DNA of 64,000 nt from Eledone cirrhosa (lineage: Eukaryota): positions 20,770,001-20,834,000 of the forward strand of contig OZ024765.1 of NCBI GenBank assembly GCA_964016885.1, written 5' to 3'. This document shows, in pieces, positions 697 to 28,960 of this stretch. A model generated the notes under the pieces. That model was not told the origin of the DNA, did no database searches, and saw only the letters and a list, made by a program, of their open reading frames with translations. Every line of letters starts with the position of its first letter. Within the stretch, counting starts at the first letter, position 1. The position numbers and the translations under genes were made by a program.

Positions 697-1228
697 CCAG
701 GTCACTCTTGAGTGCTACTGGTAACATGCAACCCAGTACAACCTGTCGCATGGTCGGGTCGTCGGCGACTAAACCGGCAACCCCACCAAGTTTACTTGGT
801 GAGGAGGGTGATTTTGGACCCACCGCAGGACAAAAAACAAAACCTGACAAAGGGCGGAAGAACTCATAAGAGTCAACGGCCATCCAAAAGTATGTAAATA
901 TGTATATACACATGTACCGCACGGTTAAACCACTGGGAGTGAAGGACCCCTAGCCTTTGTCAGGGCATTCTTCTAGGAGAAGGTATCTCAGGAAACTGGG
1001 ATAACTCCGATATAAAACCTGCGGCTCTGTAGTTACCGATGATGTTGATCTTTTCTTCTTTTCGGGTTATAGTTACTGTCGCTCAGAGAGTGGGATTGGC
1101 TCAGTGCACAGTCTTTCCTCACTTTAAAAAATATCTTCACGCACAGGCATTGCACGATAGAATTAATTAATAATTATTAATAATGGTATATATCGTGCAA
1201 TGGCCATACTCGATAATAGCCATCATAT
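697..1228 (+). mobile_element. Non-autonomous bipartite RTE derivative N1 (5'UTR plus 3' tail, ORF deleted)
   Basis: 918-1160 is near-identical to the RTE-A 5'UTR (10830-11070, minus). It ends in tcgtgcaatggccatactcgataa..agccatcatata, the RTE-A 3' tail. The head (697-890) is homologous to the N2 heads. Confidence 0.85.
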
Positions 1229-1280
1229 ATATATATATATATATATATATATATATATATATATATATAAATATATATAG

Positions 1281-24077: not shown

Positions 24078-27000
24078 TGGTGAGTGTGTATGCTCCTAAT
24101 ATGAATTCTGTCGATGAAGAAAAAGTGTCCTTTTACCATGCCTTGAAAGGTGTTTTAAGAAATATCCGTCAGGCAGACAAAGTGATCGTGCTTGGTGACT
24201 TTAATGCTAGAGTGGGTAGGGATTTTAACACATGGAATGTAATCGGAAGGCATGGGGTGGGAAAGTGTAACAACAATGGTATGCTCCTGCTGCAGATGTG
24301 CGAGGAGTTGGATCTGTGTGTTACCAACCACCATGTTCCAACAAAAGAACAAATTTAAGACTACATAGATGCATCCGGCATCTAAGGAATGGCATCTTTT
24401 GGACTACGTCCTTGTCAGGATGCGTGATGTGCAGTGTGTTCCTGGAGCTGAGTGCTGGACGGACCACTGCCTGGTTGCGCGCAAAGTGAAACAATCACTA
24501 AACGTAAAATCCGGGCTCCTCGTGTTGCACTGCCCAGAAGATTGAATGCTGCTCGTCTTAGGGATAAAGATGTGGAGAGGACATTGCGAGAAGAGATGCA
24601 TGTTGCAGATCTTGGTGAGGATTGGCCGTCCCTTAAAAAGTCGGTTTATGATGTAGGCAGGCGTGTTCTGGGATTGGTGCAGAGAAAACATCAGGACTGG
24701 TTTAATGAGAATGATGAACATATAGAAGACTTGTTGGCTGATAAGAGGCATGCTCTGTCACACTACTTGACAGCAAAACCACAGGAGAGGAATACGTTGC
24801 ATGAGGAACCCAAGGATATGAAATCACGTGTGAGTCAAAGTCTTTCTCAGATGAAGGATCAATGGTGGAGTGAGAAGGTTGTTGAGATACAAGCTGTGTC
24901 AGATTCCAATAACACAAAGCTGTTGTACAGTCTCTTGCGTGAAGTTTATGCACCGTCTTCTTTTCTGGTGACACCGCTTCGCAGCAAGGATGGCAAAGAA
25001 CTTCTTCGTGACTCACAAGGAATTCTATGAAGGTGGCGAGAGCACTTTCATGAACTTTTGAATCAGCCGTCTGTCGTCAATGAAGATTTCCTCAATCTCA
25101 TTCCAGAAAATCCTGTAAAAGTAGCTCTCGCAGAACCTCCGACGCTTGTGGAGGTTGCAGTAGCTATCTCGAAGCTGAACAGTGGAAGGTCTCCAGGTAT
25201 GGATGTCATACATGCAGAGCTCCTACAATATAGTGGTGAGAGACTCCTGCAACATCTTCACTCTTTGTTTGGCAGGATATGGGCTAATGAATCTGTACCT
25301 GAGGACTGGAGGGATGCAGTAATGGTGGTCTTGTACAAGGGAAAGGGTAACAGGAATGATTGTGGGAACTACAGAGGTATATCATTGCTTTCTGTCGTAG
25401 GGAAAGTTTTATGTAGGGTGCTTCTGGACCGTCTGCTGACACATTGCAGATTGTGTTCTTCCTGAAAGTCAATCTGGTTTTCGTGCTGGACGCGGCACTA
25501 CTGATATGATCTTCCCAGCTAGACAGCTCCAGGTGAAGTGCAGGGAACAAGGTTTGGATCTGTATCAGGTTTTTGTCGCTCTGACAAAAGCTTTCGATAC
25601 TGTTAACAGAAAGGCATTATGGAAGGTTCTCCAGAAACTTGGTTGTCCTGATAAGTTCCTTGCTTTGGTTAGGTCTTTCCATAATGACATGAAGGCTTGG
25701 GTTAATGTCGGAGGTAACATGTCGGAACCTATCTCAGTAAAAAATGGAGTGAAACAGGGGGATATTCCAGCACTGACCCTGTTTGCCATATACTTTGCAA
25801 TGGTTTTCTGTATTGCATTCAGGAATTGCGAGCATGGTGTTTACATCCAATATCGAATCTCAGGCAGCATATTTAACATCAGGCACTTTGTTGCAAAAAC
25901 AAAAGTATTTACATCAATAATAAGAGACTTCTTGTTGCAGATGATTGCAAACTTGTAGTGCACAGAGAGAGTGATATGCAACACATTTTGAATGCATTTT
26001 CTGATGCTTGCACGGCCCTAGGATTGACTGTCAGTCTCAACAAAACCGCTGTCATGTACCAACCTGCCCCTGGTAAGCAGTACAGTGAACCAAATATCTA
26101 TGTGTATAGTAAACGACTTAGAGTGGTTGATCAGTTTGTCTACCTGGAAAGCACTCAGTTTGTCTACATGGAAGCACTCCGTTGGAGTGGTCACCTTGCC
26201 AAGATGAAGGATTCTAGAATACCAAAACAAACCTTGATAATGAAATCTCACTCAGGATTAGGAAAGCAAGTGATGCTTTCGGAAAGCTAGAAAGGCGACT
26301 CTGGGGTCGGCGAGACATATGCAAGAAGACAAAAGTAATGGTGTATAAGACATGTGTTCTCTCTTCTCTTCTTTATGCCTGTGAGACCTGGGTCACATAT
26401 CGACACCACCTTAAGCAATTGGAGCGTTTCCATCAGATGTGTCTCAGACGGATCCATGGCGTTCACTGGAGGGACCACATCAGTGATGTCGAGATTTTGG
26501 AAAGCTCTATGTGTGACAGTATAGAAGATCTTGTGCTGAAGCAACGACTCCGTTGGAGTGGTCACCTTGCCAGGATGAAGGATTCTAGAATACCAAAACA
26601 ACTCTTCTATGGAGAGTTAGTTAAAGGAAAACGACCGCCACATAAACCAAAAAAGAGGTATAAGGATTCCTTGAAAGCCTCTTTGAAAGACGCTAACATC
26701 TCTGCTGATACATGGGAAAATGTTGCTGCTGATGGTAATAAATGGAGAAAGACTGTTTATGAGGGAAAAGTTGCCTTTGAGGCATCTCGAATCGCATACG
26801 ATAAAGTAAAGCAGGATGTGAGGAAGGGCATTACTGTTGCATTTCCAGACGGCGAGGGTCCTCCTATGGCGCTGACATGCAGCGTCTGTGCGAGACTCTG
26901 CCTAAGCAAAGCTGGACTCGAAAGTCATCTTCGCAGTCATAAAGTAAGACCAGTGGTTGACTACCAGGCTGCTGTTGGAGATGCTACTCATCATGCTTGC

Positions 27001-28960
27001 CAAGCATGTGGTAGAGAATGTAAATTAGCAGGAGGGCTCAAACGACATGCAAAAGTACATCAACTCCAACCACAGCCAGCTATTCTCAGTGAATGTTTTG
27101 GTTGCCAACTCTGTACAAGACATTGGTTGCCAACTCTGTGCAAGACATTGGTTGCCAACTCTGTGCAAGATCATTGGTTGCCAACTCTGTGCAAGACATT
27201 GGTTGCCAACTCTGTGCAAGATCATTGGTTGCCAACTCTGTGCAAGATCATTGGTTGCCAACTCTGTGCAAGATCATGGTTGCCAACTCTGTGCAAGATC
27301 ATTGGTTGCCAACTCTGTGCAAGACATTGGTTGCCAACTCTGTGCAAGACATTGGTTGCCAACTCTGTACAAGACATTGGTTGCCAACTCTGTACAAGAC
27401 ATTGGTTGCCAACTCTGTACAAGACATTGGTTGCCAACTCTGTACAAGACATTGGTTGCCAACTCTGTGCAAGATCATTGGTTGCCAACTCTGTGCAAGA
27501 CATTGGTTGCCAACTCTGTACAAGACATTGGTTGCCAACTCTGTACAAGACATTGGTTGCCAACTCTGTACAAGACATTGGTTGCCAACTCTGTACAAGA
27601 CATTGGTTGCCAACTCTGTACAAGACATTGGTTGCCAACTCTGTACAAGACATTGGTTGCCAACTCTGTACAAGACATGGTTGCCAACTCTGTACAAGAC
27701 ATTGGTTGCCAACTCTGTACAAGACATTGGTTGCCAACTCTGTACAAGACATTGGTTGCCAACTCTGTACAAGACATTGGTTGCCAACTCTGTACAAGAC
27801 ATTGGTTGCCAACTCTGAGCAAGACATTGGTTGCCAACTCTGTACAAGACATTGGTTGCCAACTCTGTACAAGACATTGGTTGCCAACTCTGTACAAGAC
27901 ATTGGTTGCCAACTCTGTGCAAGACATTGGTTGCCAACTCTGTGCAAGACATTGGTTGCCAACTCTGTGCAAGACATTGGTTGCCAACTCTGTGCAAGAC
28001 ATTGGTTGCCAACTCTGTGCAAGACATTGGTTGCCAACTCTGTACAAGACATTGGTTGCCAACTCTGTGCAAGACATTGGTTGCCAACTCTGTACAAGAC
28101 ATTGGTTGCCAACTCTGTACAAGACATTGGTTGCCAACTCTGTACAAGACATTGGTTGCCAACTCTGTACAAGACATTGGTTGCCAACTCTGTGCAAGAC
28201 ATTGGTTGCCAACTCTGTACAAGACATTGGTTGCCAACTCTGTGCAAGACATTGGTTGCCAACTCTGTACAAGACATTGGTTGCCAACTCTGTACAAGAC
28301 ATTGGTTGCCAACTCTGTGCAAGACATTGGTTGCCAACTCTGTACAAGACATTGGTTGCCAACTCTGTACAAGACATTGGTTGCCAACTCTGTGCAAGAC
28401 ATTGGTTGCCAACTCTGTACAAGACATTGGTTGCCAACTCTGTACAAGACATTGGTTGCCAACTCTGTACAAGACATTGGTTGCCAACTCTGTGCAAGAC
28501 ATTGGTTGCCAACTCTGTGCAAGACATTGGTTGTCAACTCTGTGCAAGACATTGGTTGCCAACTCTGTACAAGACATTGGTTGCCAACTCTGTGCAAGAC
28601 ATTGGTTGCCAACTCTGTGCAAGACATTGGTTGCCAACTCTGTGCAAGACATTGGTTGTCAACTCTGTGCAAGACATTGGTTGCCAACTCTGTACAAGAC
28701 ATTGGTTGCCAACTCTGTACAAGACATTGGTTGCCAACTCTGTGCAAGACATTGGTTGCCAACTCTGTGCAAGATCATTGGTTGGACTAAAAAGCCACAT
28801 TCGATCACAGCGCTGTTAATTGCTATCGTGTGTGTGTAGATATGTTTATGTGTGTGTATATATATATATGTGTATATTATTATTATTGTTGTTATTATTA
28901 TTATGGGTTTTTTTTTCTCGTGCAATGGCCATACTCGATAACGAGGGGGCAGCCATCATA
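24078..28960 (+). pseudogene. Decayed RTE-A copy with frameshifts and stops
   Basis: ORF pieces match the 7184-10729 protein from VSVYAP onward; same 3' tail at 28917-28960. Confidence 0.95.
27098..28784 (+). repeat. 25-bp minisatellite, ~67 units, derived from the RTE zinc-finger 3 coding sequence
   Basis: Unit TTGGTTGCCAACTCTGT(A/G)CAAGACA; the parent is ttggttgccgactctgtgcaagaca in RTE-A. Confidence 0.97.

Follow-up and report, generated by a model that had tools for sequence, protein, structure and literature searches.

The RNA of RTE-A, an intact long interspersed nuclear element (LINE) with a single open reading frame (ORF) on the minus strand of a 64,000-nucleotide stretch of the Eledone cirrhosa genome (hereafter the window; GCA_964016885.1, contig OZ024765.1, positions 20,770,001 to 20,834,000 of the forward strand), carries in its 5' untranslated region (UTR) a short segment complementary to one lying just before the terminal stem-loop of its 3' UTR. 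Judged from sequence comparisons, this covarying end-to-end complementarity is a real property of animal RTE LINEs, very probably under selection, and apparently an undescribed form of RNA cyclisation. The two ends likely pair in the RNA, closing it around the gene, and we consider it likely, on balance, that the resulting helix is part of the template signal recognized by the element's own reverse transcriptase (RT), given its retention in untranslated short interspersed nuclear elements (SINEs).

Besides the intact copy, the window holds a second, 5'-truncated RTE-A copy and three short ORF-less families, termed N1 (one copy), N2 (three copies) and N3 (one copy; Table 1). The five sequence stretches quoted in an earlier note on this DNA, which had proposed the pairing, each read as given. 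Its perfect 11-bp RTE-A complementarity is composed of strings that do exist, but it joins two different copies, with the 5' strand coming from the intact copy (10841-10831) and the 3' strand from the truncated one (28917-28927), a copy that lacks a 5' UTR. The helix that the intact copy can form by itself measures 10 bp, one of them G·U (10832-10841 with 6720-6729), and among the 28 of 30 full-length RTE-A copies of the host genome with a readable 3' end, 27 had TTGTGCAATG, one TTATGCAATG and none CTCGTG. The 15 contiguous pairs described for N2 were recovered, three of them being G·U, as was the local hairpin of N1, a perfect 12-bp helix (1148-1159 with 1191-1202), and the predicted folds of both N2 and N1 include the helix. 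N3, which the note had missed, has compensated arms of its own (ATCGCTT/AAGCGAT), extended in most other N3 copies, and N3 variants with three different junctions retain identical arms. N1 and RTE-A were counted as one observation, since their arms are common to both. Across nine aligned N1, N2 and N3 copies, 94.4% of 90 cells were paired and four of the 10 pairs had changed on both sides, all five one-sided changes yielded G·U on the sense strand, and slid registers paired at 27-42%; because these copies are related, the shuffle figure obtained for the alignment is not a probability.

The comparison was widened with metagenome elements. A scan with a 58-protein alignment yielded at least 69 loci from 15 of the 64 parts of the collection; a fixed rule recognized both ends in 22 of these, of which 18 entered the comparison, the others being dropped as members of an already represented family (L074, same family as L073), for lack of a recognizable terminal hairpin or 3' arm (L082), because the leader domain was off the contig (L083), or for an interrupted 3' end (L103). 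The RTE proteins with unbroken frames (n = 15) were 39-86% identical, with a median of 45%. The 3' window was defined as the 33 nt preceding the inner terminal hairpin, taken from the hairpin list or, in three cases, by eye. Two versions of the 5' window were used, one anchored on a GCRCAGG-like box that was placed by eye after some pairings had been seen, the other on a hidden Markov model (HMM) of the conserved downstream block, which takes no account of the 3' end and could be applied to 16 of the 18 elements. The by-eye box of L067 is probably 10 nt off, and was kept as a miss.

With the HMM windows (n = 16), the helix between an element's own ends averaged -15.8 kcal/mol, vs. -10.3 kcal/mol (standard deviation 2.5) for mismatched ends (0 of 200,000 permutations), and the own end ranked first in six of the 16. 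The box windows (n = 22) gave -16.1 vs. -9.1 kcal/mol, with the own end first in 13 of 22, or 15 of 19 after dropping L089, N1 and L067. The signal was lost in shifted windows (six 5' and two 3', two measures each, p-values 0.016-0.99), and the reversed 3' window gave p-values of 0.075 and 0.034. The own-vs.-mismatched test gave the same result with two stacking tables, a provisional one and that of ViennaRNA, and co-folding with the terminal hairpin as a competitor gave -10.1 for own vs. -5.0 for mismatched ends (0 of 100,000). The best helix fell in a single register (-8 to -2, from the box start to just before the hairpin) for 21 of 22 own pairs vs. 129 of 462 mismatched pairs, and eight or more Watson-Crick pairs out of 14 were found in 18 of 22 vs. 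53 of 462. The letters of the arms are near random between elements (20 distinct 8-mers in 22) and the box is conserved, with an information content of 0.01-0.36 bits for arm columns vs. 0.58-1.47 bits for the seven box columns (the box being placed by eye). The order of parts is constant, i.e., leader hairpin, A-rich linker, box, helix, terminal stem-loop and tail, the conserved leader hairpin being predicted in 13 of 22 co-folds.

The conserved and covarying complementarity put forward in the earlier note is thus backed by 18 divergent full-length RTEs together with the window families, and the compensatory changes present across other RTE subfamilies leave the claim standing. An origin of the arms as an artifact of deletion junctions is ruled out, since elements with whole ORFs carry them. 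In an RTEX-like outgroup, a 10-bp candidate helix was equalled by 8 and 10 of 100 shuffles and was not counted. Most of the metagenome RTEs (L061-L129) also have a strongly conserved non-coding block, starting with AAGTCCTGCGGCGA, in the ~330 nt that separate their 5' arm from the ORF; RTE-A lacks this block.

Published sequences were inspected by eye, with no null model, in parts 1-3 of the 15-part supplement of Kojima 2018 (PMC5786205) and in supplement 5 of Suh 2016 (PMC4844689), which provided three SINE entries readable to the end. Among LINEs, arms were seen in the autonomous BovB (ACCCCATGAA/TTCATGGGGT, vs. CCCATGGAC/GTCCATGGG in BovA2), RTE1_LA (ACCTTATG/CATAGGGT) and RTE-3_AMi (TCATGACATC/GATGTCATGG). 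The helix also appears in MonoRep87A (TCTCGGTCC/GGACCGAGG) and MonoRep87B, in SINE-1_Pmo (CATGGAC/GTCCATG) and SINE2_Gav (TATGCAT/ATGCATA), and in ManaSINE1, which reads GAAGGGT/ACCTTTC in one bird and GGAAGGT/ACCTTCC in another. The helix of GymnSINE is interrupted, with its apex at the apparent junction, CoeSINE4, SINE2-1_PXu and MAR1 have five pairs each, the helix is weak or unclear in SINE2-2_ACar and HaSE1/3, and ERE4B, EbuSINE2 and the Ceph-SINEs have other tails. The RNAs of these SINEs are non-coding RNA polymerase III transcripts (PMC5786205), which, together with a SINE junction lying between the arms, points to the retrotransposition step. No description of a 5'UTR-3'UTR pairing in RTE elements was found in the open literature; closed-access papers, patents, bioRxiv supplements and the rest of the Kojima supplement may hold one.

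We propose that the leader arm and the arm preceding the 3' terminal hairpin, with their fixed positions and freely changing but matched letters, pair in the sense RNA. This helix would bring the conserved leader domain up against the terminal hairpin, the place at which reverse transcription starts, and turn the two ends into one joint signal that the RT would probably recognize on beginning to copy. The protein would then read the joined ends and not the letters of the arms, so that RNAs without a leader would be poor templates, and internal deletions would persist as mobile families only if they fell inside the helix-closed loop, which could explain the bipartite N1, N2 and N3 families as well as the bipartite SINEs. 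That short non-coding derivatives retain exactly this leader-to-tail set suggests a template signal of the RT. The earlier note had offered two functions, of which presentation of both ends to the RT appears to fit better, and control of translation less well, because untranslated SINEs keep the helix.

Several results weigh against such a two-end signal. The helix is predicted in co-folds of the two RTE-A ends, but the minimum-energy fold predicted for the whole 4.4-kb RTE-A RNA does not contain it, and when whole elements were scanned (with the provisional stacking table; loose duplexes made such scans noisy) the own arm was the best site in just five of 19 elements by either measure; a 10-bp helix alone is thus not the most stable option, and a protein or a co-operative structure would have to favor it. 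In the box windows, L067 and L122 ranked 13 and 17 of 22, and L082, which was excluded from the counts, has the box with no matching 3' arm seen. The antisense strand scores equally (-17.4 vs. -10.2) and single internal defects comprise four G·U, five A·C and 11 others, so that these data do not favor the sense RNA over its complement. Plant Au and TS SINEs, which are RTE-mobilized, are described in the accessible parts of two papers as sharing the 3' end only (PMC6007223, PMC3747384), and 5' UTR swapping is reported in the accessible part of a study of plant RTEs (10.1101/2022.11.04.512097), so the need for the helix may not be clade-wide. Finally, inspection by eye revealed no new upstream ORF of the kind that an autonomous N2 parent should have, among 100 listed of 1,666 matches. 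Other searches for this parent did not find it either, whether by 3' end (30 loci, all N2), by junction-variant matches (30 of 201 examined, all N2) or by protein (query P0002, RTE-A copies only), and contigs from sequencing runs gave nothing on the arms or the N2 parent.

A real helix could serve translation instead, by closing an uncapped RNA, or by being opened by the terminating ribosome so that the protein is handed to the 3' end of its own RNA (cis preference), with SINEs inheriting it passively. In 16 of the 18 metagenome elements the stop codon falls within or next to the 3' arm, ending 2-20 nt ahead of the inner hairpin, and RTE RNAs that ribozyme cleavage has left without a cap can nevertheless undergo translation (PMC8501958, in its accessible part). 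However, the stop of RTE-A lies ~455 nt upstream of its 3' arm, the helix is kept in non-coding SINEs and in N1 and N3, and SINE-vs.-LINE changes are compensated by eye (BovA2 vs. BovB and the two ManaSINE1, in the published entries accessible to us), and we regard a role in translation as unlikely. The pairing might otherwise act on the first-strand complementary DNA (cDNA) rather than on RNA, as a panhandle aiding second-strand synthesis or full-length insertion. The equal own-vs.-mismatched gap on the antisense strand and the failure of G·U defects to exceed A·C ones (4 vs. 5) are in its favor, but the 5' arm is not terminal (~390-450 nt precede it in the window families), the one-sided changes of the aligned window families are sense-strand G·U in five of five cases, and a C to T change in young RTE-A preserves a G·U pair, so that we regard this explanation as quite improbable. 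It is very improbable that the helix only protects or compacts the RNA (as a 3' end shield, or for export or packaging) without being read by the RT: arm letters that are free except for pairing would be expected of a purely structural role, but the register is fixed between the conserved box and the terminal hairpin, which seems tighter than protection needs. Least probable of all is an absence of function, with fold-back template switching recopying one arm onto the other or with end proximity merely causing deletions, for although junctions lie in the loop, sometimes at the apex (GymnSINE), and the data are compatible with a mechanical origin of the deletions, the arms occur in one register in full-length elements spanning 39-86% protein identity, with wobbles and internal loops not expected from exact copying, and nothing is seen in shifted windows.

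A joint template signal made by pairing of the RNA ends has parallels elsewhere. Similar short complementary segments near both RNA ends pair in Ty1. Flaviviruses and human immunodeficiency virus 1 (HIV-1) likewise cyclize through short complementary end segments, in a coding RNA that is also the replication template (accessible parts of PMC6765113 and PMC1976439). All of these are viruses or long terminal repeat (LTR) elements, whereas RTE-A belongs to the non-LTR retrotransposons, whose copying is target-primed, and its arm letters are not conserved. Stringent LINE 3' tails, such as the RTE hairpin (PMC6007223) and the 3' UTR pseudoknot of R2Tg (PMC12222951), also have a structured 3' end before a simple repeat, taken as the RT signal; in the accessible parts of these papers the structures are local to the 3' UTR, whereas the RTE helix draws one of its strands from the 5' UTR, 3-4 kb away. 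Similar in architecture are the bipartite RTE derivatives and SINEs (Bov-A, WALLSI, MonoRep87, AfroSINE and ManaSINE), which like N1, N2 and N3 have kept a leader domain and the 3' UTR and lost the ORF, and for which the accessible parts of the source papers give no pairing between the two parts (PMC5786205, PMC4844689).

RNA recognition by LINEs is usually pictured as an affair of the 3' tail, to which a leader-tail helix would add the 5' end. Few LINE groups have produced bipartite derivatives, "for unknown reasons" (Kojima 2018, PMC5786205), and the helix, if it acts as proposed, would give a physical reason why RTE, among very few clades, has non-autonomous offspring that keep both ends. 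It would also bear on RTE-1-based RNA gene-writing, in which templates with both UTRs were improved by screening (PMC13708176, accessible part). Lastly, it may offer a way to match orphan SINEs with their tails: in the accessible entries for the platypus SINEs MonoRep87A and B, the 3' part labeled "unknown" matches by eye the 3' end of the metagenome RTE L064, and would be a partner arm followed by an RTE terminal hairpin like that of L064.

The extreme 5' end of these elements showed a second structured region. Full-length N1, N2, N3 and older RTE-A copies start at GTCAGG, immediately after the flanking microsatellite, and a pattern for this common 5' head had 13,514 matches in the host genome vs. 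13 for a control. The best Rfam match of the head was the flavivirus exoribonuclease-resistant RNA (xrRNA) RF01415, at 21.5-24.3 bits and E-values of 0.06-0.08 in three of five stretches, far below the gathering cut-off of 54.5, with no match in the other two; no sense-strand ribozyme match, HDV-like or other, was found in Rfam up to E-values of 5-10 in the five stretches. The 14 genome copies examined accommodate a three-way junction, a C at that junction and two candidate pseudoknots, a layout in which 90.7% of cells pair. The P1/P2/P3 junction has 91-96% of cells paired, with two-sided changes in P2 only, and remains paired with different letters in the metagenome elements L097 and L082. 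A single C between P2 and P3, a class-1a xrRNA feature according to the accessible part of PMC8374639, is found in all 14 copies as well as in L097 and L082. The letters of the putative U-A-U triple and first pseudoknot (PK1), whose positions were assigned with the help of the Rfam alignment, are nearly constant (U 13/14, A 14/14, U 13/14, G-C 14/14), and invariant letters provide no covariation. The second pseudoknot, between the P3 loop and a downstream strand, has 4-5 possible pairs (85.7% of cells) and one two-sided change, and the single-strand minimum-energy prediction favors a different fold. A model built from the 14 heads recovered the same fold upstream of the ORF in two of the at least 69 metagenome loci, L097 (E-value 1e-8) and L082 (E-value 0.02). 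The heads lie at 696-783 (+) and 21818-21905 (-) of the window, at 130-221 of L097 and at 90-156 of L082.

This head resembles the class-1a flavivirus xrRNAs (RF01415; PMC8374639, accessible part) in having three helices that meet at a junction and one C separating P2 from P3, and perhaps also in a U-A-U triple and two pseudoknots; it differs from them in standing at the extreme 5' end of a genomic retrotransposon and in scoring far below the Rfam cut-off. No description of an xrRNA in a retrotransposon was found in the open literature. On these models the head could set the 5' end of the RNA by nuclease trimming instead of by a ribozyme, and we entertain only tentatively that it is a working nuclease block. 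Rather doubtful as a whole is the broader proposal that animal RTEs, including BovB and the RTE-1 gene-writing elements, would share a two-end composite template signal in which pairing is a full-length checkpoint dictating bipartite SINEs, combined in this lineage with an xrRNA-type nuclease block that would replace a ribozyme in setting the 5' end. In young intact RTE-A copies (11096-11140 (-) in the window, and L130-L159), the structured head is absent within the fetched flank, and a common GT-rich region ending in a long poly-T takes its place, which looks like a switched 5' end.

RTE-A has the traits of the RTE clade, i.e., a single ORF for an apurinic/apyrimidinic (AP) endonuclease and an RT (Exo_endo_phos, E-value 1e-11; RVT_1, E-value 1e-30), a short, structured 3' end bearing a microsatellite tail, and a conserved 5' UTR domain, whose motif aligns with 15 metagenome relatives and, by eye, with segments of RTE-3_AMi, RTE-3_PM and RTE-14_Lch. 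RTE-A-like copies without a stop inside the match numbered 39, and the 30 that were fetched were all RTE-A by their ends. N1, N2 and N3 are bipartite non-autonomous RTE derivatives present in high copy, with both end parts retained and the ORF deleted; N1 derives from RTE-A (91% identity), and identical copies of N2 occur on multiple contigs of the 3.0-Gb host genome. A DNA terminal inverted repeat, as in miniature inverted-repeat elements, is ruled out, the arms being internal and the copies tailed and 5'-truncated. An Rfam search over positions 1-30,000 of the window returned microsatellite noise only.

Table 1. Features of RTE-A and its derivatives in the window (positions of the 64,000-nt stretch).
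Feature	Position	Strand	Details
RTE-A, intact-ORF copy	6691..11109	-	5' part above 11109 passes into poly-T and microsatellite
RTE-A ORF (1194 aa)	7184..10768	-	AP endonuclease, RT, C-terminal C2H2 zinc fingers
Conserved RTE 5' UTR domain of RTE-A	10862..10903	-	Predicted hairpin (GAGAGTGGGA ... CTCACTTTAA)
Conserved box GCACAGG	10842..10848	-	Immediately 5' of the RTE-A 5' arm
RTE-A 5' arm	10832..10841	-	CATTGCACGA
RTE-A 3' arm	6720..6729	-	TTGTGCAATG; 10 pairs with 5' arm, one G·U
RTE-A terminal stem-loop	6691..6722	-	ATG of outer stem common to 3' arm
Broken RTE-A copy, 5'-truncated	24078..28960	+	25-nt tandem expansion; only 3' arm (28917-28927) and terminal stem-loop (28925-28956)
N1, derived from older RTE-A, without ORF	696..1222	+	Arms 1148-1159 and 1191-1202; terminal hairpin partly deleted
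Structured 5' head of N1	696..783	+	Class-1a xrRNA-like
N2 copy a	15626..16215	-	Arms 15830-15844 and 15659-15673; terminal stem-loop 15630-15661; zinc-finger remnant 15688-15795
N2 copy b, full length	21295..21905	-	Arms 21499-21513 and 21328-21342; head 21818-21905
N2 copy c, 5'-truncated	22169..22541	-	Arms 22373-22387 and 22202-22216
N3	2786..2968	-	Arms 2849-2855 (ATCGCTT) and 2817-2823 (AAGCGAT); terminal stem-loop 2790-2818

Several further observations concern these copies. The zinc-finger remnant of N2 (15688-15795 (-)) is an in-frame mini-ORF of 35 codons that opens with an ATG, spans the last zinc finger and closes at the parental stop. In the truncated RTE-A copy, more than 60 repeats of a 25-nt unit derived from the last zinc-finger codons occupy 27100-28780 (+). 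Long microsatellite tracts lie in the RTE-A UTRs just inside both arms (6730-7180 and 10770-10830 (-)), i.e., within the loop that the helix would close. N2 and RTE-A copies are stacked head to tail in (ATGT)n/(TA)n tracts, frequently within an earlier copy's tail (L022, L041, L042, L054, L056, L058), and the same unit of two copies, spaced 435 nt apart, occupies four loci and might be mobilized as a dimer.

The window also includes two other LINE families. One, very young and in high copy (150 near-identical matches scored), has a PHD finger inside the RT (42868-44358 (+), 48238-49035 (-), 28960-29200 (+) and L292-L297), and we take it to be RTEX-like. The other is more distant, with 24-31% identity to RTE-A, and is represented by three copies that are 95-96% alike (3447-6053 and 17890-19806 (+), 56652-58230 (-)).

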